DNA of 64,000 nucleotides from Bacteriovoracia bacterium (GTDB lineage Bacteria; Bdellovibrionota; UBA1018; CAIPTA01): positions 96,001 through 160,000 of the forward strand of contig JBFWVL010000004.1 of assembly GCA_050246755.1 (NCBI GenBank), in the 5' to 3' direction. Every line of letters begins with the position of its first letter. The first letter of the stretch is position 1. Both the position numbers and the translations under genes were made by a program. The notes below the pieces were generated by a model. The model was not told where the DNA came from. It saw only the letters and a program-made list of their open reading frames with translations, and did no database searches. Shown piece by piece: positions 50,240 through 64,000 of this stretch.

Positions 50240-50249
50240 CCTATGTCTC

Positions 50250-50277
50250 TCTTCGGAGCCAGTGGAGAAGAACTTTA
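50250..50277 (-). promoter_or_regulatory. sigma28 (FliA) promoter
   Basis: TAAA-N16-TCCGAAGA. Confidence 0.55.
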
Positions 50278-50305
50278 TGAGAATGCACCTGACTAAAGCG
50301 CGAGG

Positions 50306-51139
50306 TTAATCGGCGCTTCTCGAACAAAGAGGGTTGCCGGCAATACAAGGCGCGGGAACGGGTTTAGAGGGGCTGCTATCTTCGTCGTCGTCCCGTACCA
50401 CCTTACGCTTGGGTTTGGCCGGCTTCTCGTCCTCGTCTGCCGTGTATTCTTTTTTCACCGAGGTGCGGGATCCATTCACGAATCGATCGAGCTCGGCGTT
50501 GCCTTCGAGGGTTTTCTTCACGAACTCAGTGGAAATCGGAGTCACTTTGGTTACGGCGTTGAGATTGTTCACGGGGAAAGCCATCACGGCGCAGCCCTTG
50601 CGGAGCAGGCCGTAGACGCGGCCAGCGTTGGAGCGGGTGCGGTAGGCGGCGTCGCTGAACATGTTCTTGATCGTGGCTTCCGACGCGCAGCCCGACGGAA
50701 CGAATTCGATTTTCATTCGGTATTCGGCTACGTGGGTGATTTTTTTGTCGGTACCGGCGAAGCAGTTAGCCCGGTATTCCGTTTCGTTCACGCGCTCGAA
50801 GCCGAACGCGTCCTTCGTGTCGAGGCAGCGAACTCCCAAAGTGGGGATCACGGGAATCTGCCTGGCCTTCATGCGAATCGCTTCGGTTTTCTGGGTTTCG
50901 AGCATGCCGTTGAAGAATTTTTCGTACTCGGCCTGGGATGCGCCCTCCAGGTGCTTGGGCATATTGCCGGAATAGTCTTCACCGCTATTATTCCAGAGCT
51001 GGCCGAGCGGCGTTACGCGGGAATTAGTATAGGGGGTTGGGGAGGGAGCGGGTTTTACCGCCGAGTCTGGAACCTGAATTAGGCCGGCCGCAAAGGCCGC
51101 GCCGCTTATGAGACTGAGACAAAAGGTGAGTTTCCACAT
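50306..51139 (-). CDS. Secreted Cys-containing hypothetical protein
   Basis: Signal peptide ending AFA, AGGAG RBS, 6 Cys in the mature region. Confidence 0.7.
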   Translation of the reverse strand: MWKLTFCLSLISGAAFAAGLIQVPDSAVKPAPSPTPYTNSRVTPLGQLWNNSGEDYSGNMPKHLEGASQAEYEKFFNGMLETQKTEAIRMKARQIPVIPTLGVRCLDTKDAFGFERVNETEYRANCFAGTDKKITHVAEYRMKIEFVPSGCASEATIKNMFSDAAYRTRSNAGRVYGLLRKGCAVMAFPVNNLNAVTKVTPISTEFVKKTLEGNAELDRFVNGSRTSVKKEYTADEDEKPAKPKRKVVRDDDEDSSPSKPVPAPCIAGNPLCSRSAD

Positions 51140-51151
51140 GGGGGCGATCTC

Positions 51152-52195
51152 CTACTCGAGTTTGCCGCCGTAGATCATTACGAGCTCGGCGAAAAGTTGT
51201 CGGTCTACCTTATGCATCATCGCGCTCTGAATCAGCTTGAAGGCTTCAAAGGGCGTCTTAGCTTTAGAGTAAGTCCGATCGGTGGTGAGGGCATTAAAAA
51301 TATCGGCGATGGTGATGATCTTGGCGAAAACCGAGATTTGGTTCTCCGTGAGCCCATGAGGATATCCGCCACCCGCGTGCTCTTCATGATGGTGCAAAAT
51401 ACCGAGCTTGGCTCTCTGAGAAAGGTCGCGATTGTCTTTGATGATCTCGTAGCCCCAGCTGGCGTGCTGGCGCATTTCTTCCCACTCCGCTTTATCCAGG
51501 GGGCCTGGCTTATTGATGATGGCGGGTTTCACCTTGGTTTTTCCGATATCGTGGAGGAGGCCGGAAATGCCGAGGTCGGCTAAATCGCCGTCGGCCGAAA
51601 GTTTCATGCGCTTGCCGATTGCGATCGCGCAGAGGCCCACGCCCACCGAGTGCTGGTAGGTATAGGGATCGTGAGAGGAAAGACGGATCAAGTGGTAAAA
51701 AGCTTTGGGGTCGCGCACGAGCAGATTCACGAATCCCGAAACGGCTTTCATCCCTTTGCGGATATTCTCGGGGCTGGGATCCTGAAACAGCTCTTCGGTC
51801 ATGCGCACGGCGGCCGAGCGCATGAGGCCCACCTGGGCTTCCACCGGGATGGTGGTTTGCGAGTTGGAAGCGCTGAGAAAGGTTTCGAGGTACTGGCGGA
51901 CGATGGGCGAATCCTGGCGGCTGAGGAAGATGCGGTCGATACCGGCATCGAGCAGGGCCTGGATTTCGAAGGCGGAAAAATTCTCCCGCTGCTCGCGGAA
52001 AATGCGGTAGCGCTTGCCGCGCTTCACGAAGAAGGTAACGGAAGGAATGGAATCGGGGCGGATCAAATGGATACGCAGGCCCACGAAGGGTTCCTTATTT
52101 TCCGGAGAAAGTTCCTGGAAAAATTCGTTCAAAGACCGGCTAACCGGATCGTCGCCGGGAATCGAAGTCTGATTTAAAGATTCAGCTGCGCCCAT
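51152..52195 (-). CDS. HD-GYP cyclic-dinucleotide phosphodiesterase family protein
   Basis: YTYQHS, LLHDIGK, HHEE..GGGYP, IADIFNALT.DRTY. Confidence 0.92.
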   Translation of the reverse strand: MGAAESLNQTSIPGDDPVSRSLNEFFQELSPENKEPFVGLRIHLIRPDSIPSVTFFVKRGKRYRIFREQRENFSAFEIQALLDAGIDRIFLSRQDSPIVRQYLETFLSASNSQTTIPVEAQVGLMRSAAVRMTEELFQDPSPENIRKGMKAVSGFVNLLVRDPKAFYHLIRLSSHDPYTYQHSVGVGLCAIAIGKRMKLSADGDLADLGISGLLHDIGKTKVKPAIINKPGPLDKAEWEEMRQHASWGYEIIKDNRDLSQRAKLGILHHHEEHAGGGYPHGLTENQISVFAKIITIADIFNALTTDRTYSKAKTPFEAFKLIQSAMMHKVDRQLFAELVMIYGGKLE

Positions 52196-52226
52196 AAATT
52201 AGTTATCTCTCTATTATGACATAGAT

Positions 52227-52254
52227 TTATCGGCCCAAACCCCGTTTCCATTGA
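52227..52254 (-). promoter_or_regulatory. sigma28 (FliA) promoter
   Basis: TCAA-N16-GCCGATAA with a perfect -10 element. Confidence 0.75.
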
Positions 52255-52303
52255 GCCCTGTCTCGTAGTTTGTCAGGTGTATACGGATTGAGACATTCGG
52301 GGC

Positions 52304-52320
52304 TGTCTAAAGTTTAGACA
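52304..52320. promoter_or_regulatory. Palindromic operator / enhancer site
   Basis: TGTCTAAA-G-TTTAGACA perfect palindrome; related boxes at 52259-52275 and 56457-56473. Confidence 0.65.
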
Positions 52321-52392
52321 CTCGCTCCCGAACGCGGGATTTTCCCTCAGGAAATCGGGCTTCTTTCTGTTTCTGGGAACCTGCCCAGTTTC

Positions 52393-52408
52393 TGGCCGCT
52401 GTTTTGCA
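52393..52408 (+). promoter_or_regulatory. sigma54 promoter
   Basis: TGGCCGCTGTTTTGCA (GG-N10-GC). Confidence 0.65.
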
Positions 52409-52499
52409 ATTACCTCTACGTGCTCATCGAGTGCGGTTAAGGCGGGTCCTAACAGAGGGACCGAGCCCAGTTGTTGAACTTTTGCGGAGGTTGTTGCTG

Positions 52500-52856
52500 A
52501 TGTCTGCTTACCTAGATAAGTCCCAGGGTGTTACTTTCGTTTTCTCGAATATCCACCAAATGTACAAACGCGCCAAGGAAGCCAAGATCGACGCTCCTTT
52601 CGTGGCCGAGCGCGCTTCCGCCCGCGTGCTCAAAAAAGAAGAAGCCAAAGTAGAAGAATTCAAGCCCGCGGAATTGAAGACGACCGAACGTACCTTCGCC
52701 GTGCCCATGGGCGTGAAGGAAGCGGAAGAAAAAGCCATGCGTGCCAATATGCGCCCCATCGCTAACCTCCAGAAGAACCTCTCGGAACTTACTGAGGCCC
52801 ACGAGCGCCTGAAATTTTTGATCCAAGAGATCGATTCGCTCACGAAGAAGAAGTAA
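52500..52856 (+). CDS. Hypothetical protein with a C-terminal coiled coil
   Basis: GGAGG RBS; LQKNLSELTEAHERLKFLIQEI; coupled to the next gene by TAATG. Confidence 0.7.
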   Translation: MSAYLDKSQGVTFVFSNIHQMYKRAKEAKIDAPFVAERASARVLKKEEAKVEEFKPAELKTTERTFAVPMGVKEAEEKAMRANMRPIANLQKNLSELTEAHERLKFLIQEIDSLTKKK

Positions 52857-53275
52857 TGAAGCTGATCGCCCTGGCCATCCTCGCTTTCCTCCCGCTCTCC
52901 GCCAGGGCGCAAGATATCTCCGCGCAAAACCGCGGCCTCCCCGGAATCCATATGCGCACCGAATCCCGCCGCGCCTTCACTTGCGTGGTGCTGGAAATCA
53001 CCCATGCCGATCACCGGGTCGAGCCTTTTATTGGTCGGGAATTTTCTCCCGCCGATCTCGGCCGCTATACCGTGCTGAACGAAGTGCACGTAATGGGCGA
53101 GACCGGTTCCGACGTGACCCCGCCTCGCCTCCTGCAAAAAGAATCCCAGACCCTCGCGCAAGCCACCGCCGAGCTTTCCCGAAATCCCGATTGCGGGGCG
53201 GGGGAGCGTGAGCTCAGCGATGCGGAATGGAAAGAGGAATTCGAGCGGTATCTCGCCGAGCTCGATGCGGATTAG
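52856..53275 (+). CDS. Secreted hypothetical protein
   Basis: Signal peptide ending ARA; 2 Cys. Confidence 0.65.
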   Translation: MKLIALAILAFLPLSARAQDISAQNRGLPGIHMRTESRRAFTCVVLEITHADHRVEPFIGREFSPADLGRYTVLNEVHVMGETGSDVTPPRLLQKESQTLAQATAELSRNPDCGAGERELSDAEWKEEFERYLAELDAD

Positions 53276-53276
53276 G

Positions 53277-54056
53277 TTAAGCTTTGGTTTCTGTTTTTTC
53301 GCCTGGCGCCACGTAGTTCTCGACCGCGGGATTCTTGGCCGCGGTTTTAGGTAATCCCGCTTTCGGCACATTGATCGTAACCACGCCGTTCTCGTACTGG
53401 CGCTTGATCCCCTTGGCGTCGAAGGCTCCCGGGATATTCAGCTGTTCCACGATGCTTTGGTAGCTATTGGTGCGGGTCACGCGATCGGCTTCCGCATCCT
53501 TGGCGTTTTCCTGAAAGCGGCGGGCCAGCGACATCTTTAGCGATTGCCCATCGGCCGAAACAAACAGATTTTTCGCTTCGTGCTCGGGCAATGCCACCTT
53601 CACCATGAAATCGGTGGCGCTTTCGGTGAGCACCGGGTTCAGGGATTTGAGGCGGTAGAAAGGATCTTCGGTTTGCTTGGTCACGAAGGTAAGCTTTTCC
53701 ATCGTGCTCGCGCGGCGGTCGTTGATGTCTTTCAGCGATTGCGCGTCCAGGCCTTTGATTTGCTCGGCGGTAGTGGCCGCGAGTGCCTCGAAATTCTTCT
53801 GGGTGTTCTCGTTGAGGGCGTGGATACGGTCGGTATTGAGTTTCTTGGTATTGTCCATCTGGATAGATGCGGCCTTGGAAATCTCTACGATGTCTTTTTC
53901 CGTTTTTTCACGCTCTTCCTGGAGAACTTTGTTGCGGTTGCGCTGCGCGCGGGCCTGCTCCATCTGGAGATTGGCTTCTTCCTGCTCGATGGCGCGTTTT
54001 TTATCGGCCAGTACGCGTGCCGCCCCGGTATCGGATCCAACGTTGTCTACGCTCAT
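53277..54056 (-). CDS. Hsp20/alpha-crystallin-domain protein with a long N-terminal coiled coil
   Basis: C-terminal YENGVVTINVPK motif; AAGGAGG RBS. Confidence 0.7.
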   Translation of the reverse strand: MSVDNVGSDTGAARVLADKKRAIEQEEANLQMEQARAQRNRNKVLQEEREKTEKDIVEISKAASIQMDNTKKLNTDRIHALNENTQKNFEALAATTAEQIKGLDAQSLKDINDRRASTMEKLTFVTKQTEDPFYRLKSLNPVLTESATDFMVKVALPEHEAKNLFVSADGQSLKMSLARRFQENAKDAEADRVTRTNSYQSIVEQLNIPGAFDAKGIKRQYENGVVTINVPKAGLPKTAAKNPAVENYVAPGEKTETKA

Positions 54057-54065
54057 CGATCCTCC

Positions 54066-54377
54066 TTAATGACTGAAACCCTGCTTTTCCTGAGCCGAGT
54101 TCTGCACGATATTGAAGTAGACGCGGGCCACGTCGTCGTAGGTTTCGGGGTCGAGACCGTCGAGAAAAGCTTTTTTGCCGGAGATGGTGGGCCGGAGGAT
54201 CATCTGCTCGAGCAGATGTTCGGCTTTTTCCAGCCGCTCGTTGCGGGCTTCATTCTGACCGATGCGGTCGGCAATACGGCGGATCGTTCCGCCATCAAAC
54301 AAAAGATGATTACCCTGGGCCGACTGGTCGAGCAGGTATTTTACCTGGTCCAGTTGTTCTTGGTTTACGTAAATCAT
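54066..54377 (-). CDS. Hypothetical helical protein
   Basis: GGAGG RBS, 103 aa, GNHLLFD. Confidence 0.7.
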   Translation of the reverse strand: MIYVNQEQLDQVKYLLDQSAQGNHLLFDGGTIRRIADRIGQNEARNERLEKAEHLLEQMILRPTISGKKAFLDGLDPETYDDVARVYFNIVQNSAQEKQGFSH

Positions 54378-54509
54378 GGAAAACCGCCTCCATTGCAGTT
54401 TCCGGAGTTCCAGTCCTTGGAACCCTTCCCCTTCTTTAAGTGTATAGAATAAAGGCGACAAACCGCAAGCGCTCCATGCTAGACTTTTAGATAGGAGGCT
54501 CATAGGGAC

Positions 54510-55382
54510 ATGAGCAAAAAGCGCTTAAAATACAGCGACTTCTGTCAGAGCTGCCGACGTGCGCTTGGGGCTGACGAAAAGGTCGTTTACGTAGAAGAGG
54601 GAACAAATCGCTTTTTCTGTTCGGAAAAGTGCATTCGTACTTACTACGATCCGATGGCGGAATTCTATCGCGAGCGGATGATGGAGATCCGCGACCCCCA
54701 CGATATTTCCGAGTCTGATTTCGACGAATACGAAAGCTACGCTCCGCTTTGCCTCTCCAATCCCGACGAGATTTGGGTGGACTCCACCGAGAATGGCGAA
54801 ACCATGACGATCTTCATGGCGAACTTCACGAACGAGGGCGGGAAATTTACCTTCATCGTGATGTGCTTCTGCCTCGAGGCCGAGCCTACCTATATCCTTC
54901 TTTCGTTTCCTACCCGCGATAAAAAAATGGTGGAAGAATTCCGCCGCGGGCAAAAAACCGAAATTCGAAACGAGCCCGAGGAAGGCGCCGAGCCCGAAGT
55001 GAGCAGCGCGCTCACCGATGATTTTCTTTCCCGCCAGGGGAATGCGATCGAAGAGGAGATGCTCCGGCACCGCCGCAAGACGGATATTCCCGTCGAAGAA
55101 TTCGAAGAGCACGCTCATTTGCTGGAGCAGGTGATCGAGAATCCCGACGAGGTTTGGGAGCTGCAGGACGATAACGACCACACGATCCTCACGCTGATCG
55201 CGCAACAGGATGAAAAGCTAGCCTACGTGGTGATCTGCACGGCGGAACAATCGCCCGAGGGCGGGCAGGAGAGCTGGCGGGTGATTTATAGCTTTCCGAC
55301 GAATGATCCAGCGCTAGTGCAGCACTACCGGCGTGGGCAGCTGCGCGAAGGCGGCGACGGCCGCGCGAATTTTCTGCATTAA
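54510..55382 (+). CDS. TRASH-like Zn finger plus two tandem NPDE.W repeats (possible BECR-fold domains)
   Basis: CQSC...FCSEKC; repeats NPDEIW...SFPTRD..FRRG and NPDEVW...SFPTND..YRRG. Confidence 0.7.
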   Translation: MSKKRLKYSDFCQSCRRALGADEKVVYVEEGTNRFFCSEKCIRTYYDPMAEFYRERMMEIRDPHDISESDFDEYESYAPLCLSNPDEIWVDSTENGETMTIFMANFTNEGGKFTFIVMCFCLEAEPTYILLSFPTRDKKMVEEFRRGQKTEIRNEPEEGAEPEVSSALTDDFLSRQGNAIEEEMLRHRRKTDIPVEEFEEHAHLLEQVIENPDEVWELQDDNDHTILTLIAQQDEKLAYVVICTAEQSPEGGQESWRVIYSFPTNDPALVQHYRRGQLREGGDGRANFLH

Positions 55383-55450
55383 AATCAGTTGGCAGAGGGC
55401 GGTTTGCGGTTATCCGCTCAGGCGGGGCCAAGCGACGCCGCAAAAACTAC

Positions 55451-55684
55451 TTAAACTTTTTCAGCTTGGGTTTCTTTTACCGGCGCGGGCGCGGAAGCTT
55501 CGTTTTTGCGCTCGATTTGGGCGGAAGAGGCGCTGGTAATGGGATTTTGGTCTCCCGACATCGCATCCTTAAAGTTCTTCATGGTCCGGCCAATGCTATG
55601 GCCCAGGTCCGGCAAGCGTTTAGGGCCGAAGATCAGCAGGATCACAAGTAATACGAGAAGATGTTCCCCGGAAATTCCGAACAT
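55451..55684 (-). CDS. tatA: Twin-arginine translocase TatA/E
   Basis: LLIFGPKRLPDLGHSIG..MKNFK. Confidence 0.93.
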   Translation of the reverse strand: MFGISGEHLLVLLVILLIFGPKRLPDLGHSIGRTMKNFKDAMSGDQNPITSASSAQIERKNEASAPAPVKETQAEKV

Positions 55685-55743
55685 AGCGATTTACCTCTTG
55701 CTGCCTTTATAGATCAAATGCGGCGCGTAGGCAATGCTGGGTC

Positions 55744-56247
55744 TTAGGGGGTGAGTACGGAAACGGCGAGGGGCGGGGCGGAGGTTGTTTGACCGTTCAA
55801 GTACATTTTGTAGGCGGCAAGGTAGACATCCTGCACGAGCACGAGGGCCGTATAATCGGCCGACTGCAGGCTCACGGAAGTATTGTAGGTATTGGTCACG
55901 AAGCAGGTTTCGGTCTGCGGAATCTCGCCGCGAATGGGGACTAGGCAATAACGGCTGCCCGCCGAGAATGAGGTCACTTTCACGGTGGTGAGGGCGGGGT
56001 TAGCGGCCGCGTAACAAACGCTGGAGCCGGAGAAAAGCTGGCCGAAGTAGGTATCGCCAGCGGCGGCCACCGAGAAGGTTTTGCAGGTGAGTTGCTGGAG
56101 GGCGGCCTGGGCGGCGAGGGCGATGCTCTGCGCGCTGGAGCTGGAGCCCGCGGCTTTGGCTTTTAGCTTCGCTTGGGCGCCCATATCGGCATTGCCGCAG
56201 GCCATGCAGAAAAGAGCGGTGCTTAGAATGAATAGCTTCAGCCACAT
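55744..56247 (-). CDS. Hypothetical lipoprotein
   Basis: Lipobox CMAC; 4 further Cys; GAGG RBS. Confidence 0.7.
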   Translation of the reverse strand: MWLKLFILSTALFCMACGNADMGAQAKLKAKAAGSSSSAQSIALAAQAALQQLTCKTFSVAAAGDTYFGQLFSGSSVCYAAANPALTTVKVTSFSAGSRYCLVPIRGEIPQTETCFVTNTYNTSVSLQSADYTALVLVQDVYLAAYKMYLNGQTTSAPPLAVSVLTP

Positions 56248-56343
56248 GGCAAGACCTCGTTGGAAAAAAGAGACGGCCGCGGAAAGCGAGGAGCGTGAGC
56301 TGAGGAGGCAAAGAGGGGAGCTCGCGGCTGTCGGAGAAGCAGT

Positions 56344-56359
56344 TACAAGTTTGGTGCCA
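56344..56359 (-). promoter_or_regulatory. sigma54-like promoter
   Basis: TGGCACCAAACTTGTA (GT in place of GC at -12). Confidence 0.5.
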
Positions 56360-56546
56360 CCGTTCCCGCTTTCCCATAAAGCGCCGTGATTTCGGCGGCG
56401 TGGGGAAGAAGCGCGAATCTAAATCTAGAGTGTTTAAATTATAGATGGTGGACAGCTGTCTAGTCGGTTGACAGGCTCCCTTTTTGCCCGATTTCTTGCG
56501 ATAATATAGAGGGAGCAAATGGGTGCGGAGACACGATTCACAAAAA

Positions 56547-57302
56547 ATGATTGAGGTGGTTCCTCGCGGCCTAGGCGGGCTTGGCCTATGGGCCGGATCG
56601 GATCACTATGGACTCGTGGCGGCTTTCCAGCGCGCCCCCTTTTCTTTTCCCGCCTCGGGAGTACAGAAGATTTTCCGGATCGCCTTCACCGAGATCCCCG
56701 GCTTTCAGGAAGACCGCTTCCTCGTGGAATATTCCTCGGGCCGTAAGGATTGCATGGTGATTCTCGACACGCTCCCCTCCGCGCTCAAAGACGAGAAGCT
56801 CGAAAAAGTTTCTCCCTTCGGGGTCTGCCTGCGCTACCTCGAGCTCTTCCGGCGTGAGCCTTCTTCGCTATTGCTGCCGCTCGCGCTTCCTCTGGGAATC
56901 ACCATGGTGATGATGTTGTTCGGCTTCTGGAGCGATCTCGTGCTGCGTAATCCCGAAGTGCTGGGCTTCTTCGCCCGGCCCGGCTGCGATGTGAATTGCG
57001 TGGAAAAAGTGCTGCGCTTGCATTCCCTCGTGGGAATGCTTTTCCTGATTCAGTTCTTTCTATTGCTGATGCCTTTTTCGTTTTTATTTTTTCACGCGCC
57101 CCGCTTCCGCTACGCTTTTAACGTGCGCATTACCCAGTTGTATTCGATCACCACGGCGGTGATCGGCGTATTCGTGTTCGCGCAGCTGATGGTATTCTTC
57201 CCGTTCAAGCAATATAGCCGCTTCCTGGCGCTGGGACTCAATCCCAAGGTGGAGCGGATGCTCTCCCACCTCAACGATCCCAAAGAAAAAAATCACCCGT
57301 AA
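56547..57302 (+). CDS. Hypothetical membrane protein (3 TM helices, CxxxC loop)
   Basis: ORF with a hydrophobic C-terminal half; start uncertain (56523 or 56547). Confidence 0.6.
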   Translation: MIEVVPRGLGGLGLWAGSDHYGLVAAFQRAPFSFPASGVQKIFRIAFTEIPGFQEDRFLVEYSSGRKDCMVILDTLPSALKDEKLEKVSPFGVCLRYLELFRREPSSLLLPLALPLGITMVMMLFGFWSDLVLRNPEVLGFFARPGCDVNCVEKVLRLHSLVGMLFLIQFFLLLMPFSFLFFHAPRFRYAFNVRITQLYSITTAVIGVFVFAQLMVFFPFKQYSRFLALGLNPKVERMLSHLNDPKEKNHP

Positions 57303-57311
57303 TAACTAGAA

Positions 57312-57851
57312 TTAGGCCGCGGCCCGGTCGGTTTGCGCCGAATCGCCCGTGAGTGGCTTGGCCGCGTCCACCACTTCGGTAGCGGCTAAGAGATCATGCA
57401 GGGTGAGGCCGTCTTTTCGCAGCAGCGGCAGGAGAAAACCGATACCAAGGGCGAGCTGGCCGCTCACTACGTAGAGCAGGCTACGGCCTAGCGCGCGGGC
57501 AAAGGTGAGGTCCTGGCCATCGCGGGAACGCAGGGTAAGGCCCATCGCCCACTTGCCTAGTGATCGCCCAAAGTACCAGTGGGCGATCGTGAAATAAGAG
57601 AAATAGTAAAGGATATGGGCCGCTTTAGTGAAATGGCCGGCCTTAGCGCTCGCGGCTACCCGGGCGAGCGTGGCGGCGTCTCCGGGGCTCTGCAAATGGC
57701 TGTAAGCGAACACGCAGAGGGCGGAGGTGCCCACGGTGAGCGCGAAGAGAAAAGCGAGATCTAGGAGGTAGGCGAGCGCGCGGCGCCCGAAGTTCACGGG
57801 AACCGGGCTCCGTTCGGGGTTTAGCGCCTGCATGGTTTCGATGGGCATCAA
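57312..57851 (-). CDS. RDD family membrane protein
   Basis: RRALAYLLD, GRSLGK..MGL, LHDLLA.T.VV. Confidence 0.9.
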   Translation of the reverse strand: MMPIETMQALNPERSPVPVNFGRRALAYLLDLAFLFALTVGTSALCVFAYSHLQSPGDAATLARVAASAKAGHFTKAAHILYYFSYFTIAHWYFGRSLGKWAMGLTLRSRDGQDLTFARALGRSLLYVVSGQLALGIGFLLPLLRKDGLTLHDLLAATEVVDAAKPLTGDSAQTDRAAA

Positions 57852-57871
57852 GGGCGTATCGGAGCGGAGAC

Positions 57872-59437
57872 CTATTTCCTATAGGCGCGCAGGCCGAGGG
57901 CGAACGAAAAAATAAGACAAAGCAGCGCGAACCACTCACCTAAACGCGTGTAAAGGGTGGGGACGACGTTGGTGGGGACGGGCACTTCAATGACTTTCAC
58001 CGCTTCCTGGTAGGGCTCGCTCAGGAGCTGCACTTCGCCGGTGGCCGTCACCAGGCCGGAAAGGCCCGTATTCGTGGAGCGGATCATCGGGATATGGTGC
58101 TCGACCGAACGCAGGATCGAAAGCTGGAAATGCTGCCAGGGCTCGAAGGTATTGCCGAACCAGGAATCCTTGGTGAGGTTCACGAAGAGGCGGGCTCCTC
58201 GCTGCGCGTAGGGGCGCATGTAGGTGGGTAGGATGGCTTCGTAGCAAATATTTATTCCGATGGGGAGCACGCCCGCTTTCCAGGGAAAATCCGTGGGAAC
58301 GGCTCCCGGGCCGCGGCCGAAATCTCCCATCTGGGGATTTAGCTCCTTGATGCTCGGGAAATAATCGGTGAGGGGGATATACTCGCCAAATATCAATAAA
58401 ACTTGTTTTCGGTAGCCGGCGATCACGCCGCCGTCCGGGCCAAGGATGAGGGCGGAGTTGAAGTCGCGGGCGCCGTCGTTTTCGTAGGTGCCGAACAGCA
58501 AGGGGATTTTCAGCTCGGCGGTGGTATCTTTTACTAGGTTCGCATATCCATAAGCGCCACGGCTCTGGGCGGGAGAAGAAGGCGTGGGGAAGGCCATGGG
58601 GTAGGAAGTTTCCGGCCAGATAATGAGATCGGGTTTCTGGGGCGCAAGCGCCCGGTTATGCTCCAGCATTCTGCCGATCGTGAACGTGATGGCCTCTTTG
58701 GCGGTAGTACGCTCCGCCATCTTTTCCACTTCCTCGAGGTTCTGCTGCACGAGGCCCACGCGCAAAATTTCCGTGGGGCGCGCGTCGATTCTAGCTTTCT
58801 CATATTTTCCCCAAATGGAGAGGGCCGCGATGAGTGCGGCCGCGCAGGCCACCGAAGGTAGGGCACCGCGGCCGCACTTACGCCAGTAAGCGAGCGAAGC
58901 GCCGAGCCAGAGAGGCAGGAAGCTTAGGAGGCTCACTCCGCCGAGGCTGGCGGCCTGGGCGAGGGGAAGAAAGCGAATGAGCGTATTGCCGAGGCTTTCA
59001 GGAAAAATCTTCAGGAAACAGGCCAGAAATTCCAGGCCGGTATAGAGGGCTGCCCAAAATAAAGGGCGTAAAAATAGCGGCTGGCGCTCGATCCGGAAAC
59101 GCAGCAAATGGCCGAAGAAAAAAAATGCCACCAGCTGCGGAGCCGCCACCAAACAGAAAAGGCAGAGCAGGCCGAGGGCCAGCGGAAAAGAAAGGCCGCC
59201 GAAATACTGGGCCACATAAATGATCCAGTGAAAGCCGCCCCAGGCGATCATGGCGGATAATAGAAAGCCAAGGCGGATGGCTTGCTTTCGGCTTTCTAGC
59301 GCGTGCAGGGAAAAAATCAGTCCGGGCATGAACAATAAGGAGAGAGCCGGTACATCGTAGCGGGGGAAGCATAATACGTAGGCGATGCCTGCAAGTATTG
59401 CCCATAAGGTAGATCGGTGTGGTACGCTTATTTTCAT
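57872..59437 (-). CDS. lnt: Apolipoprotein N-acyltransferase
   Basis: WPETS, YRKQ.L..FGEY.P, ICYE, DSWFG, RSTNTG. Confidence 0.95.
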   Translation of the reverse strand: MKISVPHRSTLWAILAGIAYVLCFPRYDVPALSLLFMPGLIFSLHALESRKQAIRLGFLLSAMIAWGGFHWIIYVAQYFGGLSFPLALGLLCLFCLVAAPQLVAFFFFGHLLRFRIERQPLFLRPLFWAALYTGLEFLACFLKIFPESLGNTLIRFLPLAQAASLGGVSLLSFLPLWLGASLAYWRKCGRGALPSVACAAALIAALSIWGKYEKARIDARPTEILRVGLVQQNLEEVEKMAERTTAKEAITFTIGRMLEHNRALAPQKPDLIIWPETSYPMAFPTPSSPAQSRGAYGYANLVKDTTAELKIPLLFGTYENDGARDFNSALILGPDGGVIAGYRKQVLLIFGEYIPLTDYFPSIKELNPQMGDFGRGPGAVPTDFPWKAGVLPIGINICYEAILPTYMRPYAQRGARLFVNLTKDSWFGNTFEPWQHFQLSILRSVEHHIPMIRSTNTGLSGLVTATGEVQLLSEPYQEAVKVIEVPVPTNVVPTLYTRLGEWFALLCLIFSFALGLRAYRK

Positions 59438-60071
59438 GGAACTCCATGGTAGCCGTCTAGAAGGCCGTCGCCAAGAAATTCGCTGCTCCGATTGCGGGCA
59501 TACCTACCTTATCGCGGAGGGTCAGCTTAGTTCCCGCTGCACCCATTGCGGGAATATCTCCGCGCACGCAGTAAGCCCCGCGCCGGAAGCGGCCCTAGTT
59601 TTCCGCGAGACTATCGTTCCGGGCCAGAAAAGTCCTCTCGATGCTTTTCAAAAACTTCCCGACGGCCTCAAGGTGCAGGAGGTGCTCTCCCGTTATCAGA
59701 TCGAATGGCAGCTCTGGTCGGTACTGGTGAGAAATTTTTCCGATCCGGTCTACCATGCCGCTTATCTTTCGCAGGCGATAGCCGCGAGCGCGATTTCCGA
59801 AGCTTCCGAGCGTTACCGCATGCATCGCTCGGCCATGGTGCTGCTGCGGGACGATCATTGGCAGGCAGAAGTGGCGGATTTAATGCTCACGCGCCTGGAG
59901 CGTTTGTCCTTACTGAGAATGCAGCAGACCGAGCGCGTGAATTATCTGTATTTGCGATGGGCGGAATTGATGGCCGACCAGCCGCTTCGGGCCAAGCTGA
60001 TTCGCTTCGGCTGGTTCGTAGCCGGTATGTCTCTATTTTTGCGGCTGGTCCTACCGCTCTTTAACCGATAA
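59436..60071 (+). CDS. Zinc-ribbon protein with a C-terminal TM helix
   Basis: CSDC...CTHC; C-terminal hydrophobic helix. Confidence 0.65.
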   Translation: MELHGSRLEGRRQEIRCSDCGHTYLIAEGQLSSRCTHCGNISAHAVSPAPEAALVFRETIVPGQKSPLDAFQKLPDGLKVQEVLSRYQIEWQLWSVLVRNFSDPVYHAAYLSQAIAASAISEASERYRMHRSAMVLLRDDHWQAEVADLMLTRLERLSLLRMQQTERVNYLYLRWAELMADQPLRAKLIRFGWFVAGMSLFLRLVLPLFNR

Positions 60072-60084
60072 TTTTTTAAGGTAG

Positions 60085-60149
60085 GCGATCCGGTTAAGTC
60101 GGCCGTCCGGGCCGCTTCCCCAACGATTGGAAGGTCCCAACCGGATCGC
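60085..60149. other. Multi-branched RNA hairpin between convergent genes
   Basis: GCGATCCGGTT/AACCGGATCGC 11-bp closing stem with internal GGCC/GGCC and CTTCC/GGAAG hairpins. Confidence 0.55.
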
Positions 60150-60159
60150 TTTAGGAGAA

Positions 60160-61338
60160 CTAGTGGAAAGCCACGTCGCGGTGGATGGTGGTGCTTTCTT
60201 TCGTCTGGGGAGCGGCGGCCAGCTCTTGAGCTTTGTCTTCTTTATCCAAAGCCGCTAACACTTTGCTGTCTTTGCCGTCGCGCTTGGCGAGGGTCATGCG
60301 CAGGGCCGCGTAGGCGTTGATCCGGCCACCGGAAGCTACTTTCGCTTCGAGGTTCGCCAATTTATCGGTGGAGCTCATGATGATCTCACGCACTTCCGCG
60401 GGTTTCAGCGAAGGATTTTCGCTGAGAATTAAGGCGGCGAGACCGGATACGTAGGCAGTGGCTTGGCTGGTGCCGGTGAGGTAACCGTAGCGTCCTTTGG
60501 GCAACGTGGAATAAACGTTCTCGCCGGGCGCAGCCACGTGCACGTGTTTCTTACCCCAGTTCGAGCTGGGCAAGAGCTGGTTGCGGATATTGGTAGCCGC
60601 TACTGCGATGATATTCGTAAGGCCGTAAGCGGCAGGGTAGTAGGAATTTTTTGCGTCGTCGGTGTTCTGGTATTCGTTTCCGGCCGCGGCTACGAAAAGA
60701 ATTCCCTTCGCTTCGGCGCGTTGGATGGCTCTCATCTCGGCCGCGCTGAACTCAGCTCCGCCACCGGAGTAGTTGATAATGTTCGCGCCATTGTCCACGG
60801 CGTAGTTGATAGCTTTCACGGTATTGGCAAGGTTCTGGGCGCCGCTGGCGGTATCGGAATAGTAGCGAACGGCCATGATGCAGATATTAGGGGCCACACC
60901 GGAAGCGCCGGTATTGCCGCGTCCGGTGGCGCCGATGATGCCGGCCACGTGCGAGCCGTGGCCGTGCTTATCTTCGGGATTTTTCTTGTTGGTTACGAAG
61001 TCGAAACCGTATTCGTCGGTGCCGGGTTTGCGGCAGATATTGTCTTTGAGGTCGGGGTGGGTGGCGTCGATACCCGTGTCGATCACGGCCACGATAATCT
61101 TCTTATCGCCGCGGGAGATTTTCCAGGCTTTGCGGGCGTTGATATGGGAGGCCTGCTCTTTATTGTCGAGCCCCCAATTGCGGAGCAGGATCTCCGAAGG
61201 GTTCGTTTTTTCCAGCTTCAGGGCCGATGATACATTCTGAACCAAAGCAAATGCTTGGTCAGAGGTAACGCCAAACCCGAGGGTTAGGGCGAGACCGGTG
61301 GCTACGGAAAACTTTGCTACGGCGCGAAACTTCAACAT
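60160..61338 (-). CDS. Secreted S8 subtilase
   Basis: IDTGID, HGSHVAG, AAGNE, TGTSQAT. Confidence 0.94.
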   Translation of the reverse strand: MLKFRAVAKFSVATGLALTLGFGVTSDQAFALVQNVSSALKLEKTNPSEILLRNWGLDNKEQASHINARKAWKISRGDKKIIVAVIDTGIDATHPDLKDNICRKPGTDEYGFDFVTNKKNPEDKHGHGSHVAGIIGATGRGNTGASGVAPNICIMAVRYYSDTASGAQNLANTVKAINYAVDNGANIINYSGGGAEFSAAEMRAIQRAEAKGILFVAAAGNEYQNTDDAKNSYYPAAYGLTNIIAVAATNIRNQLLPSSNWGKKHVHVAAPGENVYSTLPKGRYGYLTGTSQATAYVSGLAALILSENPSLKPAEVREIIMSSTDKLANLEAKVASGGRINAYAALRMTLAKRDGKDSKVLAALDKEDKAQELAAAPQTKESTTIHRDVAFH

Positions 61339-61391
61339 CAACAACTCCAACAAATTTCGGTCCCAAGAGCGGGATGGGACGCGGGCTAAAG

Positions 61392-61407
61392 AGCAAGTGA
61401 TGTGCCA
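61392..61407 (-). promoter_or_regulatory. sigma54 promoter
   Basis: TGGCACATCACTTGCT, a consensus match. Confidence 0.8.
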
Positions 61408-61525
61408 CCTCGGAGGGGGTGCGTTATAATTGCCTGGATTAAATCAAGTATATGATTTTATTGATTATTTTTTAATTGCCGGAATTGGTGCGGGGGTGCA
61501 AGTAAGGAAAGGGCTGACGATCTTT

Positions 61526-61553
61526 TAAACATCCGACCACTGTCTACCGATAA
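61526..61553 (+). promoter_or_regulatory. sigma28 (FliA) promoter
   Basis: TAAA-N16-ACCGATAA, 6 nt before the ATG. Confidence 0.7.
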
Positions 61554-61559
61554 GTCACC

Positions 61560-62423
61560 ATGCTTATCTGCGCGTTCTTTTTACTCCTTTCGCCATTCGC
61601 CCAAGCCGGCGAACCGGCCTGGACCAGCTCGTGGCGGGGAATTCCGGAACTGCTCTCGGTGCTCGGATCGATTCCGGAAGGAAAGAAAATTTTAGCGCAG
61701 GCGAAAAAGAAAAATCCGGCCTTCCTTGAGCAGATGCATGCCGGCGAGGCTTCGTTTACCGAAAGCACTTTCGTGAGAACCTACTCGCTGCTCGACGGCA
61801 AAGAGAGAATCGAGCTGCGCCACGAAGTTACGCTGAGTAAAAAGCTGAATTTGGCGGAAGCCGTAGTGGACCTTGCGCACGAACTTATTCACTACACCGA
61901 CAAAGGAATGCTCGATCCCTACCGCCCGGGGTTTGCCCTCAAAGAATTCGTAAAAAATGGAATCGAAGGGCCGGGCGGGGAATTGGCGGCGTTGAAGGAA
62001 GAATGCAAAGTGGCTTGGGCGCTCGAGCGAGCCTACGCCACCTACCCAACGCATTTGCTGTGCTCCTCCTACCATAAAGGTGAATTTGGATTCGATATGG
62101 CGAAGGCCAAGAGGGACTACTACTCCCTGGGAGGCTGGTACCACAAAGTGGATCCGGAAATGCGTAAGGCGATGCCCGAGCTGACGCGGGCGAAGGTGCA
62201 ATTCAACTCGAGCTATGCGGGAAAGCCGTACCCGGTAGCGCTAGCGGAAGAATTTCAAGAAACAAGGAAAGCCGCCTGCGTGAACAACCGCCGGAAGTAT
62301 AGCTTGATCGCGGCCCAAGCCGATAGCGGTAGAAGCCCCGCGTCAGAAGACCTCGAGAATGAGCGAAGCCGGCTGAAGTGGTACGACCAAAACTTCTGCC
62401 GAGGCGAAGGCCCGAAAAAGTAG
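61560..62423 (+). CDS. Secreted HExxH metallopeptidase-like protein
   Basis: Signal peptide; LAHELIH with downstream Glu (GGELAA); 4 Cys. Confidence 0.65.
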   Translation: MLICAFFLLLSPFAQAGEPAWTSSWRGIPELLSVLGSIPEGKKILAQAKKKNPAFLEQMHAGEASFTESTFVRTYSLLDGKERIELRHEVTLSKKLNLAEAVVDLAHELIHYTDKGMLDPYRPGFALKEFVKNGIEGPGGELAALKEECKVAWALERAYATYPTHLLCSSYHKGEFGFDMAKAKRDYYSLGGWYHKVDPEMRKAMPELTRAKVQFNSSYAGKPYPVALAEEFQETRKAACVNNRRKYSLIAAQADSGRSPASEDLENERSRLKWYDQNFCRGEGPKK

Positions 62424-62505
62424 GTAGCGGTAACGGCTAACGCGACGCTTCTCCGTAATCGTGTATTGGCTGGGGGTGCTTGCTTCAAATTGAAATCAGT
62501 GGTTC

Positions 62506-62539
62506 TATAAATATGATAATTATAGTTATCATATTTATA
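62506..62539. other. Symmetric dif-like recombination site (14-6-14)
   Basis: TATAAATATGATAA-TTATAG-TTATCATATTTATA, a perfect inverted repeat ending 1 bp before the recombinase ATG. Confidence 0.75.
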
Positions 62540-62540
62540 T

Positions 62541-63632
62541 ATGCAGTTTTGGCATCAAATTCAGTCCTGGCTAGGGTCCCTTATCTCCAGATGGCGAGCC
62601 TCTAAGCAATCACCAAGAAGGGTAGTGCCCACCCTTCATCCCTTTGTTTCAGAAGAAGCATTTGATTCCGGGCTTCCCCAAGTTTTGGAACCAACACTTC
62701 AAGAGCCTTGGCTAAAGGGTGAGATTATCCAGGAAATGCAGCGATTCCTGCAGGGGCAACGTTCTCCCCATACCAAAAGGGCCTACGAAAACGATTTGAA
62801 GCAGTTCATCGGCTACTTGCGTGCAGCTAGTCAATCCGGGGAATCTTTCGATGCGTTATTGGCCTACCGAGACTGGTTGGTACTGGAAAAAAGCGTGGGC
62901 GGGCCGGAGCTCTCGCGTACTTCCGCGAATCGAAAGTTCGCCACGGTCCGGAGTTTTCTTACCTGGCTGCAGGCAAGGGGAAAGGTAAGCCAGAATCCTT
63001 CGCTTTGGATCAAAAACTACCGGGCCCAAACTGAATCTCCCACCCAAGCCTTTAGCGATGCCGAAGTAGCGCAGATGCTCGCGCTACCGAATCAGAAATC
63101 TTCCTCCGGCCTCATGCACGCCGTAATCCTGCATTTTCTTTTTTTCTTAGGATTACGCCGGGGGGAGATCGTGGCGCTGAAAGCCAGCCATTTGGGGTGG
63201 AGCCGAGCGGGAGAGCATACCGTGCTCACCGTGAGGGTTCCCGGAAAAGGCGATAAGGAAAGAATCCTGCCTTTGCCGCTTAAGATGCAGCCCATCCTCC
63301 TGCGTTACCTCGAGCGCAGGCAGTTGGCGGTTGGCGATGAGCAGTATCTGTTTTCCCCGGTGCGAAATAATATTACCGGCGTAAAGAGCAAATCCATCGA
63401 TGCACAGTCGATTTACTATATTGTGAAAAAATACGCCGAAGCGGCGGGGATCATGAGGCGGGTAAGCCCTCATTCTTGCCGGGCCACCGCGATCTCCAAT
63501 GCCCTCGACCACGCCGCTTCTCATCGATCGGTGCAGCAGATGGCCGGCTGGAGTTCGCCGCTTATGATTGCCCGCTACGACAAACGCCGTACCGACCTAC
63601 AGCACTCCGCGGTGCATCTGGTGGACTACTAG
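62541..63632 (+). CDS. Xer-like tyrosine recombinase
   Basis: SAM-like N domain (SPHTKRAYENDL); catalytic R (GLRRGE), K (GKGDK), HSCR, GW, RYD. Confidence 0.93.
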   Translation: MQFWHQIQSWLGSLISRWRASKQSPRRVVPTLHPFVSEEAFDSGLPQVLEPTLQEPWLKGEIIQEMQRFLQGQRSPHTKRAYENDLKQFIGYLRAASQSGESFDALLAYRDWLVLEKSVGGPELSRTSANRKFATVRSFLTWLQARGKVSQNPSLWIKNYRAQTESPTQAFSDAEVAQMLALPNQKSSSGLMHAVILHFLFFLGLRRGEIVALKASHLGWSRAGEHTVLTVRVPGKGDKERILPLPLKMQPILLRYLERRQLAVGDEQYLFSPVRNNITGVKSKSIDAQSIYYIVKKYAEAAGIMRRVSPHSCRATAISNALDHAASHRSVQQMAGWSSPLMIARYDKRRTDLQHSAVHLVDY

Positions 63633-63894
63633 GCCCGGTTCTAGGCGAGCTAGGAGCCTTGTAAAGGCGTGCTAAAACCCGGGATAAGGCCCATTGGGGC
63701 ATTGGGGGCGGAGAGGGACTTCGGCGCTCTTTGCCCGAATCAAGGGGTTGCGAGCCCCATTTATATTCGACTTAAAAAGGCCTTTTTAAGGGATTTGGGC
63801 CGGGAAATAAGCCAAAAACAGTCGAAGTTTTAGGCAGTTGTCAGTTTATGGGCGCGTTGTGCCTGGGGGCCGAGCATAGGATAATAGAACTAGG

Positions 63895-64000
63895 ATGAAT
63901 CTTATATTTTATAGCGGCGGCAATACTCGGGAAAATCGACCCCTCGCACGAGAGGTGGCCGCATCCCTTAGGGATAAACGTAATCCCGTGATTACTTTTG
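63895..64000 (+). CDS. Partial CDS, possibly peptidase S51 (PepE-like)
   Basis: MNLIFYSGGNTRENRPLAREVAASLRDKRNPVITF, open to the window end. Confidence 0.45.
   Translation, partial: MNLIFYSGGNTRENRPLAREVAASLRDKRNPVITF

Follow-up and report, generated by a model that had tools for sequence, protein, structure and literature searches.

We analyzed a window of 64,000 nucleotides, positions 96,001 to 160,000 of contig JBFWVL010000004.1 (contig C4 below) in the 3.55-Mb assembly of a Bacteriovoracia bacterium of the phylum Bdellovibrionota (GCA_050246755.1; genome G000 below). Near the end of this window, positions 62506-62539 contain a 34-bp site that reads TATAAATATGATAA-TTATAG-TTATCATATTTATA. 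The left arm (62506-62519) and the right arm (62526-62539), 14 bp each, are exact reverse complements of one another, whereas the 6-bp spacer (62520-62525, plus strand) is not palindromic. The site contains only 3 G+C of 34 bases, in a contig with 54.7% G+C. With up to 3 mismatches, the pattern matches only itself in the window, against an expectation of 0.00 from 100 shuffles, and no second copy exists in the whole assembly at up to 6 mismatches. A single base (T, 62540) separates the site from the ATG at 62541 that opens an intact 363-aa frame (62541-63632, plus strand) encoding a tyrosine recombinase, which we denote Xer3. Thus, the sequence-only reading that drew attention to this locus, namely, a perfect AT-rich palindrome that ends 1 bp before the start codon of an intact tyrosine recombinase, is confirmed. 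A consensus scan also detected a promoter-like element (62490-62517, plus strand; -35 TTGAAA, 16-nt gap, -10 TATGAT; 10 of 12 matches), with the -10 hexamer inside the left arm; however, this is a pattern match only, and the scan found 2 such sites in the region, against 1.1 expected from shuffles.

The Xer3 protein consists of an N-terminal aromatic/basic motif, a variable linker, a SAM-like core-binding domain (PF02899, residues 70-147) and a catalytic domain (PF00589, residues 173-348; 69.8 bits against a cut-off of 27.1). The roughly 65 N-terminal residues match no family, and no arm-binding domain was found, so that the protein fits the definition of simple tyrosine recombinases (PMC8138268). 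The catalytic residues R206, K236, H311, R314, W337 and Y346 are invariant in 27 orthologs. The start at 62541 is supported by an N-terminal motif (M-x-[FIL]-[FWL]-x-x-[ILF]-x-x-[WF]) shared with 10 of the 11 orthologs aligned, although the public gene call for this protein starts 28 codons later (335 aa). No transposase, phage or other recombinase domain was detected in the 3 upstream ORFs scanned with Pfam or in the 7 downstream ORFs scanned, and there are no tRNA genes in window positions 50000-64000, so this is not a tRNA-targeted island.

The sequence-only reading considered this enzyme a lone Xer, and this part of it is wrong. The presence of canonical xerCD/dif elsewhere in the genome had been named in advance as grounds for rejection, and this condition is fulfilled. 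XerC (TIGR02224, 335.7 bits against a cut-off of 335.15) and XerD (TIGR02225, 319.7 bits against 329.6, but passing NF001399) are encoded on another contig (C1). The rest of the canonical system is also present: FtsK with its gamma domain was found, and a canonical dif (GTCGGATAA-GATATA-TTATGT), which matches the family alignment and a covariance model of the canonical site (R2), lies at C4:166110-166138, 7.6 kb beyond the palindrome and just outside the window.

Xer3 itself scores far below the cut-offs of the known Xer families: 135.8 bits against 335.15 for XerC, 121.9 against 329.6 for XerD (TIGR02225), 39.2 against 267 for XerS (NF003462) and 91 against 220 for XerA (NF040815); it also falls short of the integron integrase model (TIGR02249, 30 bits against 265). 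No XerH model appeared among the NCBIfam hits, and neither a chain named XerH nor a Cre chain was among the 5 solved structures matched at E <= 0.001. The closest solved structures are XerD (1a0p, E = 8.7e-14) and the archaeal XerA (5hxy, E = 6.8e-11). Xer3 is 29% identical to the XerD of the same genome, with W337 aligned to the second catalytic histidine of that protein; XerC/D carry histidine at this position. In a quick tree that included no XerH, XerS or XerA references, the Xer3 clade (SH-aLRT support of 97) falls outside the XerC/D group.

We then asked whether the gene and the palindrome belong together. Orthologs of Xer3 were found in 28 of 41 related genomes, and a covariance model of the site (R1), which in G000 hits only this locus (36.3 bits), hits a single locus in 27 of these 28 genomes and in 0 of the 13 genomes without the gene; in the exception (G001), the gene is cut at the end of a 2-kb contig. 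A short pattern (YRATAANNNNNNTTATYR) used initially on the genomes without the gene gave only a few uninformative hits with no flanks and was replaced by longer patterns and by R1. Within one genus, the site is present in 3 of 3 genomes with the gene and in 0 of 5 without it. In contrast, XerC/D are present in 39 of the 41 genomes whatever the status of the site, so the site does not track them. All but a few of the genomes are metagenome bins, so any absence in these comparisons only means that the feature was not found. The identity between Xer3 orthologs falls with taxonomic distance (65-71% within the genus, 56-61% within the order and 38-48% within the class), the flanking genes are syntenic within the family, and every genome with the gene carries a single copy.

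Among 80 loci, homologous sites were identified near the orthologs in 58, whereas in 22 no site was found within the DNA examined. In 38 of the 58 loci, the site lies upstream of the gene, and in 37 of these 38, it ends 1-61 bp before the first in-frame start codon; in the other 20, the site lies 77-3,761 bp downstream of the gene, in either orientation, and in some class relatives it is up to about 15 kb away. In an alignment of 59 sites, the inner ATAA of the left arm (columns 11-14) and the TTAT bases facing it across the spacer are invariant. The spacer (family consensus N-T-T-T-W-N), the presumed strand-exchange region that would give the site its direction, has an invariant T in column 16 and T conserved at 90% or more in columns 17-18, and in all 38 upstream-type loci, the T-rich strand of the spacer reads in the sense of the gene. 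Perfect arm symmetry is not a family trait: only 3 of the 59 sites are 14/14, and the rest are 10-13/14. Nevertheless, the arms co-vary symmetrically (for example, columns 7-9 with columns 26-28): 9 of 14 arm positions change on both sides while keeping complementarity, with a covariation score of 0.262, against 0.127 in shuffles (0 of 500 reach the observed value) and at most 0.089 for slid registers.

The site lies in the region of the replication terminus. In G000, the KOPS-like motif GGGNAGGG is polar from the origin on C1 (30+/146- on one side and 55+/8- on the other), and on C4 it converges on a zone at 150-178 kb that holds the site at 158.5 kb. In G009, the site is at 733,676 and the skew peak near 748 kb; in G016, the respective positions are 419,821 and near 430 kb. 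In the 14 genomes in which the site and the canonical dif are on one contig, they lie 3.4-63 kb apart (13 distances come from model hits and one, that of G016, from a manual pattern match). However, where the two sites are far apart, the polarity switch is at the canonical dif and not at the palindrome. In G022, the skew peak is near 90 kb and the dif at 88,118, but the palindrome is at 139,940, about 50 kb off the peak; in G006, the KOPS-like switch is at 155-160 kb and the dif at 155,415, but the palindrome is at 218,797, 29-63 kb off the skew peak or polarity switch.

Across the phylum, the module was found in 106 of 301 sampled genomes and in 3 of 8 species of one genus, but in 0 of 35 genomes of one family (f20) that includes complete single-contig genomes of 3.0-4.3 Mb. 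In some genomes, Xer3 or a relative apparently occurs without XerC/D. Three genomes of family f4 have this recombinase but no XerC/D was found in them. Outside another family (f21), 4 of 234 sampled phylum genomes lack a XerC/D-family hit, and the three of good quality (G012, G021 and G216) all carry Xer3; in G012, it is the only PF00589 hit in the genome. Model R2 gave no hit in G012 and G021, but it also missed 9 XerC/D-bearing genomes, including G016, where a variant dif was found by hand, so this result carries no information on joint loss of XerCD and dif. In family f21, one of three genomes checked (G197) has a Xer3 relative as its only PF00589 hit at E <= 1e-10, whereas the other two have four hits each. 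In the complete genome G150, where no XerC/D-family hit was found (E <= 1e-40), a Xer3-like gene lies 0.9 kb from a perfect CGATAA-N6-TTATCG palindrome at the GC-skew peak, although R1 does not recognize this palindrome, and R1 and palindrome scans found no site within 5 kb of the gene in the 5 loci of f21 homologs examined. Topoisomerase IV is not a correlate of the module: only one GyrA/ParC-family gene was found in G000 and in 38 of 41 relatives, whether or not they carry the module, and this feature belongs to the class.

With respect to its anatomy, the site shows the features listed for Xer/dif core sites (PMC2731167), that is, inverted arms of about 11 bp around a 6-8 bp central region, low G+C content and intergenic location. 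It also occurs once per chromosome and lies close to the terminus, the latter with the offsets noted above for G006 and G022. Among the known systems, XerS/difSL of streptococci and lactococci similarly combines a single Xer-like recombinase with its own, genetically linked dif-like site immediately next to the gene, so the two act as one module, in the terminus region (PMC5357621, PMC2731167). However, difSL is 31 bp long, with an 11-bp central region and unequal arms, compared to the 34-bp site with a 6-bp spacer and identical arms described here, and XerS is described as an alternative to XerCD, whereas here both systems are present in one genome. XerH is described as the single Xer-like recombinase of the species of Helicobacter and Campylobacter that have difH; Xer3 coexists with XerC and XerD. 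Canonical XerC/XerD-dif resembles the Xer3 module in the use of simple tyrosine recombinases and in a single-copy site, low in G+C and near the terminus, with arms that end in ATAA and start with TTAT around 6 bp, but the Xer3 site has two like arms rather than a XerC arm and a XerD arm. The canonical dif of this lineage is a different sequence (GTCKGATAA-KAWATA-TTATGT) that resembles the published dif predicted for Bdellovibrio bacteriovorus HD100 (TCTTCTGATAAGTTATATTATGTAACGG). In archaea, a single recombinase, XerA, acts on a near-palindromic dif, but the lineage studied here is bacterial and coexists with XerCD. Cre/loxP also involves a 34-bp site of inverted arms around an asymmetric spacer, a homotetramer of one enzyme and tryptophan at the second-histidine position, but the Xer3 module is chromosomal, vertically inherited and terminus-linked, not from a phage or plasmid, and its spacer is 6 bp.

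Taken together, the interpretation offered by the sequence-only reading, a single-recombinase dimer-resolution module with possible autorepression, is partly supported: the cognate pairing, the terminus location, the overlap with a promoter-like element and the 5' end of the gene, and the single-recombinase architecture hold, but the module is not the only Xer system of this genome, identical arms are not characteristic of the family, and the palindrome is not at the polarity switch where this can be discriminated. The explanation that we favor, although only as somewhat more likely than not, is that the gene and the palindrome form a self-contained single-recombinase module of the Xer/dif kind that is vertically inherited in Bdellovibrionota, lies in the terminus region and coexists here with XerC/XerD-dif, which looks like a second, single-enzyme system for untangling sister chromosomes. 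The analysis demonstrates that the site is real, where it lies, that it is linked to the gene and co-varies, and that gene and site are lost together; binding, catalysis, dimer resolution, any dependence on FtsK and autorepression are inferred from sequence alone. In the mechanism proposed from the anatomy of the site and general tyrosine-recombinase chemistry, one Xer3 monomer would bind each identical arm, and two site-bound dimers, on sister copies of the site, would synapse as a homotetramer. Tyr346 would cleave at the edges of the 6-bp spacer, and two sequential strand exchanges through a Holliday junction would add one crossover. The asymmetric T-rich spacer would fix the alignment of the sites, so that two copies in a chromosome dimer recombine as direct repeats and the dimer is resolved (or linked sisters are unlinked). 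Because each chromosome has only one site, sister or intermolecular recombination would be the only reaction available. In this family and order, the site abuts the start codon and overlaps a promoter-like -10 element, so bound recombinase probably would also repress its own gene; however, given the downstream and distant sites in other lineages, autoregulation cannot be the conserved function. Other observations weigh against the favored reading: with a full canonical system present, a second resolver looks redundant, and nothing in these data explains why both are kept; the module is dispensable, as its patchy distribution shows; a strictly FtsK-guided resolver would be expected at the polarity switch; and no site was found in 22 of the 80 loci or near the gene in the 5 f21 loci examined.

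An alternative that we consider unlikely is that the module is a domesticated remnant of an integrative element, with the gene an old integrase and the palindrome its attachment site, stranded near dif and now either without a cellular role or serving as a landing pad for elements with a matching site. Terminus and dif regions are hot spots for integrating elements, with about a quarter of dif sites reported to have phage, IS or integrase neighbors (Carnoy and Roten), and both the patchy distribution and the displacement of the palindrome from the switch in G022 and G006 are compatible with this possibility. However, each genome has a single site, never two sites flanking a segment, identity tracks taxonomy, the flanks are syntenic, the DNA between the palindrome and dif encodes peptidases and unknown proteins with no mobile-element genes, and some genomes have Xer3 or a relative but no XerC/D hit. 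With a single palindromic site, a recombinase of its own, and peptidases and unknown proteins encoded between the palindrome and dif, the locus is not an IMEX, that is, an integrative element exploiting Xer, bracketed by two dif-like sites and without its own recombinase. Furthermore, no joints at the site appeared in contigs of three of the four sequencing runs containing this DNA, where a roughly 95%-alike strain spanned the stretch, but this is weak evidence because contigs drop rare forms.

Still less likely is that Xer3 is mainly an autoregulator that binds a palindromic operator, with recombination vestigial: the overlap of the site with a promoter-like -10 element and its position next to the start codon here, and its position shortly before the first in-frame start codon in 37 of 38 upstream-type loci, fit this view, but the invariance of all six catalytic residues, the downstream sites and the terminus location do not. 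Similarly improbable is an RNA hairpin in the 5' leader of the recombinase mRNA, or a DNA cruciform. The covariation test cannot tell a hairpin stem from two identical protein half-sites, and in this genome the site lies in the 5' region of the gene, but in other lineages it is kilobases away, downstream and on either strand; the invariant inner bases and conserved spacer are those of Xer core sites; a conserved T-C mismatch at columns 10/25 in 16 of 52 distinct sites would weaken a stem; and a hairpin does not explain the terminus location. Finally, the possibility that Xer3 is the only Xer system, replacing XerCD/dif, appears to hold in some relatives (G012, G021, G216 and, for a Xer3 relative, G197) but is refuted for this genome by the presence of XerC, XerD and dif.

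A bolder and more tentative possibility, which we consider less likely than not, is that Bdellovibrionota run two independent sister-chromosome resolution systems at one terminus: XerCD-dif at the KOPS/FtsK polarity switch and a self-sufficient, homotetrameric Xer3 system that does not need to sit there. Xer3 would then act without FtsK, for instance, on the several chromosome copies of a growing filament before septation or, alternatively, as an unlinking device in a class where no topoisomerase IV (ParC) paralog was found. In this view, the two systems can replace each other over evolutionary time, with some lineages keeping XerCD only, some Xer3-like only and many both.

We found no report of this module in full-text literature searches, although supplementary tables not covered by them (for example, Table S1 of PMC2731167) may list further Bdellovibrionales recombinases. 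If family f20, where the module was not found, is the cultured Bdellovibrio group, which is our inference, this would help explain why the module has not been described. The findings also correct annotation, given that these proteins are named 'XerD' or 'tyrosine-type recombinase/integrase' in public records, and the enzyme with its 34-bp site of two like arms is a compact recombinase/target pair amenable to direct study. Single-recombinase Xer systems (XerS, XerH, XerA) are known as replacements for XerCD. The both/either pattern across the phylum, which makes it possible to address what limits a dimer-resolution site to the terminus when it is not at the FtsK polarity switch, and why a cell would keep two resolvers, is shown here by a further, unnamed family with its own site that is kept together with XerCD/dif in one terminus.

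The palindrome at window positions 62506-62539 reads TATAAATATGATAA-TTATAG-TTATCATATTTATA, with two 14-bp arms that are exact reverse complements of each other and an asymmetric spacer. A single base (T, 62540) separates this site from the ATG at 62541, which opens a 363-aa frame ending at 63632. Within the window, the site matches only itself at up to 3 mismatches, against 0.00 expected from shuffles, and in the 3.55-Mb assembly it has no second copy at up to 6 mismatches; it contains 3 G+C of 34 positions in a contig of 54.7% G+C. The encoded protein combines a SAM-like core-binding domain (PF02899) with a catalytic domain (PF00589). The ATG at 62541 is the likely true start, given that an N-terminal motif (M-x-[FIL]-[FWL]-x-x-[ILF]-x-x-[WF]) is shared with 10 of the 11 orthologs aligned. 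The public gene call for this protein (335 aa) starts 28 codons downstream, omitting window 62541-62624, so that the annotation hides the fact that the site abuts the start codon. The first 20 residues (window 62541-62600) form a conserved aromatic/basic motif (MQFWHQIQSWLG and its like) that precedes a variable linker of about 40 residues and matches no known family; more distant orthologs also have aromatic-rich N-termini, and this motif may be an amphipathic helix for targeting or partner binding. The 287-aa ORF directly upstream of the site (window 61560-62423) has no Pfam family but is conserved in synteny with the recombinase across the family and into the order. What had been observed from the sequence alone is confirmed.

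The sequence-only reading, however, described the recombinase as a lone Xer, and this is not the case. The genome to which the window belongs (hereafter G000, with the window at contig C4, 96001-160000) has 11 PF00589 matches, of which two, on contig C1, are canonical: XerC, which scores 335.7 bits on TIGR02224 (cut-off 335.15), and XerD, which scores 319.7 bits on TIGR02225 and passes NF001399. In contrast, the recombinase next to the palindrome, here called Xer3, scores only 135.8 bits on the XerC model, 121.9 bits on the XerD model, 91 bits on the XerA model, and 39.2 bits on the XerS model. Xer3 is 29% identical to the XerD of the same genome and has a tryptophan (W337) in the position of the second catalytic histidine of XerC/D. 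A canonical XerCD-type dif is present as well: GTCGGATAA-GATATA-TTATGTTTGG lies at C4:166110-166138, in a divergent intergenic gap 7.6 kb beyond the palindrome and 6.1 kb past the end of the window. The same motif (GTCKGATAA-KAWATA-TTATGT) is conserved in the 20 related genomes aligned; a model built from that alignment finds one copy in 30 of 41 relatives, and the site resembles the dif published for B. bacteriovorus HD100, TCTTCTGATAAGTTATATTATGTAACGG (PMC2731167). The condition that had been named in advance as refuting the "lone" status, that is, canonical xerCD/dif elsewhere in the genome, is therefore fulfilled.

Nevertheless, the recombinase and the palindrome form a conserved pair. The related loci come from Bdellovibrionota metagenome bins, and Xer3 orthologs occur in 28 of 41 related genomes, in one copy each. 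The identity falls with taxonomic distance, from 65-71% within the genus to 56-61% within the order and 38-48% within the class; the flanking genes are syntenic within the family, and all six catalytic residues are invariant in 27 orthologs. We searched 80 loci from the genome collection for a homologous site in up to 4 kb of the available DNA on each side of the gene, requiring ATAA-N6-TTAT and at least 10 of 14 complementary arm positions, and found one in 58 loci. In 38 of these, the site is upstream of the gene, whereas in the other 20, it is 77-3,761 bp downstream. In 37 of the 38 upstream loci, the site ends 1-61 bp before the first in-frame start codon, and within the family and order of the window genome, this gap is 1-18 bp.

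Across the 59 aligned sites (52 distinct), the inner ATAA and TTAT are invariant and the spacer reads N-T-T-T-W-N. Nine of the 14 arm pairs change on both sides while staying complementary; for example, columns 9/26 are C-G in 24 sites and T-A in 24. The covariation score is 0.262, against 0.127 in shuffles (0 of 500 reach it) and at most 0.089 for slid registers, although the sites were chosen partly for being palindromic and the sequences are related. Perfect symmetry, as seen in G000, is not a family trait: one clade keeps a T-C mismatch at columns 10/25 (16 of 52 distinct sites).

The gene and the site also occur together. A covariance model of the site (R1) hits one locus in 27 of the 41 relatives, and these are 27 of the 28 genomes that carry the gene; the exception is the relative G001, in which the gene is cut at the end of a 2-kb contig. 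The hit in another relative, G018, is weak (E = 0.0014) and lies on another contig. None of the 13 genomes without the gene has a hit. Within one genus, a pattern search finds the site in 3 of 3 genomes with the gene and in 0 of 5 without it. By contrast, XerC/D are present in 39 of 41 genomes regardless of the site, so the site is assigned to Xer3 and not to XerCD.

To locate the module relative to the replication terminus, we examined GC skew and strand-biased octamers. In G000, contig C1 holds the origin, at the cumulative-skew minimum near 1.325 Mb, and the most strand-biased octamers relative to that origin include GGGAAGGG and GGGCAGGG. The motif GGGNAGGG behaves like KOPS: it is 30+/146- to the left of the origin and 55+/8- to the right, whereas on C4, it is on the + strand in 21 of 23 cases up to 150,423 and on the - strand in 12 of 15 cases from 178,485, with none in between. 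Both the palindrome (158.5 kb) and the canonical dif (166.1 kb) lie in this convergence zone at 150-178 kb. FtsK with a gamma domain is encoded at C1:734239-734412. On C4, the GC skew is strongly positive up to about 160 kb and then flat, without becoming clearly negative (C4:160000-262511), which could reflect island content or an assembly effect; this stretch holds another, very divergent Xer-like gene (C4:238693-239577, 294 aa) that forms a long branch in the tree. The 7.6 kb between the two sites encodes an S51 peptidase, an M1 aminopeptidase, an SH3-domain protein, and unknown proteins, and holds no mobile-element genes. Only one GyrA/ParC-family gene (PF00521) was found in G000 (C1:1350109-1351434) and in 38 of 41 relatives; no topoisomerase IV ParC paralog was found in this class, but this does not correlate with the presence of the module.

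The same positions were compared in relatives with long contigs. In G009, the skew peak is near 748 kb, the palindrome at 733,676, and the dif at 721,618; in G016, the skew peak is near 430 kb, the palindrome at 419,821, and a dif variant near 438.3 kb. In the 14 genomes where both sites lie on one contig, they are 3.4-63 kb apart (13 distances from model hits and one, in G016, from a manual match), although long distances are censored because they can be measured only when both sites share a contig. When the two sites are far apart, it is the canonical dif that marks the switch. In G022, the skew peak is near 90 kb, the dif at 88,118, and the palindrome at 139,940; in G006, the KOPS-like switch is at 155-160 kb, the dif at 155,415, the skew peak near 190 kb, and the palindrome at 218,797. 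The Xer3 site is therefore close to the terminus but is not the polarity switch.

In 301 sampled genomes of the phylum, a Xer3 homolog (E <= 1e-40) occurs in 106, always as one copy. By family (numbered here f17, f4, f20, and f21), it is found in 31 of 34 genomes of f17, in 23 of 35 of f4, in 0 of 35 of f20, which includes complete single-contig genomes, and, at lower identity, in 17 of 67 of f21. The XerD model, which also catches XerC, hits 258 of the 301 genomes. Outside f21 (234 genomes), four genomes lack a XerC/D-family hit, namely, G012, G021, G216, and G151, the last of which is only 66% complete; the first three all carry Xer3. In G012 (97% complete), Xer3 is the only PF00589 hit in the genome, and in G021, the other three PF00589 hits are weak, at 61 bits or less.

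In f21, canonical XerC/D hits are lacking or weak. One genome of this family, G197 (99% complete), has a Xer3 relative as its only PF00589 hit at E <= 1e-10, whereas two others, G150 and G048, have four hits each. The complete 3.81-Mb genome of G150 has its skew peak at 1.90 Mb and a 329-aa Xer3-like gene at 1,896,772-1,897,761, the best G000 match of which is Xer3 (139 bits), ahead of XerC (87 bits) and XerD (74 bits); a perfect palindrome, TCTACCCGATAA-cttcca-TTATCGGGTAGA, lies at 1,898,693. A second tyrosine recombinase of this genome (locus L217, G150:C1:1877979-1879125; 357 aa), which is closer to XerD/XerC than to Xer3, has its own perfect palindrome, AGCTACATATAA-tttata-TTATATGTAGCT, 44 bp upstream of its start and lies 20 kb from the skew peak. 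So this genome has two recombinase-plus-palindrome pairs near one terminus and no canonical XerCD hit. A tree from a quick search only, without XerH, XerS, or XerA references, puts the 27 Xer3 orthologs in one clade (SH-aLRT 97) that is sister to five f21 homologs (support 91) and separate from XerC/D. Across the phylum, lineages have both systems, or one, or the other.

The analysis itself establishes a unique site with two like arms and an asymmetric 6-bp spacer, an intact catalytic set in the recombinase, the strict joint presence of gene and site (apart from G001, with its truncated gene), a location close to the terminus, and the existence of lineages in which only this family was found. 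The mode of action, including binding, catalysis, and dimer resolution, is inferred. In this view, one Xer3 monomer would bind each arm, and two sister sites would synapse in a homotetramer; Tyr346 would cleave 6 bp apart, and two strand exchanges through a Holliday junction would add one crossover. The asymmetry of the spacer would align the two copies of a dimer as direct repeats, so that the dimer is resolved. With one site per chromosome, no other substrate would be available except a foreign circle that carries the same site. In the family of the window genome, a -10-like TATGAT (62512-62517) lies inside the left arm and the site abuts the ATG, so that bound recombinase would block its own promoter; this is plausible here but is not conserved wherever the site lies downstream of the gene. 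We are confident that the palindrome is the cognate site of Xer3 but only moderately so in the reading as a whole, including sister-chromosome resolution. The competing readings that we weighed are that the pair is the remnant of an element or a landing pad, that the palindrome is only an operator, that it is an RNA hairpin, and that Xer3 is the sole Xer system, the last of which runs against the canonical XerC, XerD, and dif of this genome.

Mechanistically, the module would work like XerS/difSL, in which gene and site form one module, and like XerH/difH or XerA/dif, in which one enzyme acts on a near-palindromic site. Xer3 fails the sequence tests for XerC, XerD, XerS, and XerA, and no chain named XerH was among the 5 solved structures matched at E <= 0.001. 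The module differs from XerS/difSL, from XerH/difH, and from XerA/dif in coexisting with a complete XerCD/dif set at the same terminus. Full-text literature searches on dif sites, Xer proteins, and tyrosine recombinases of Bdellovibrio, on single-recombinase Xer systems, and on second dif sites or additional Xer recombinases, together with inspection of PMC2731167, PMC11318664, PMC8138268, and PMC5357621, turned up no description of such a third recombinase, within a literature that did not extend to supplementary tables or subscription journals; the Bdellovibrio review (PMC11318664) names only the xerCD genes and the in-silico dif.

Altogether, the feature is real and conserved. The interpretation offered from the sequence alone is partly supported: the label "lone" is wrong, but the pairing of site and recombinase is right. 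As judged from sequence evidence alone, Xer3 and its site make up a new, putative single-recombinase family of the Xer/dif-like type that is accessory in this genome and apparently the sole system in some relatives.
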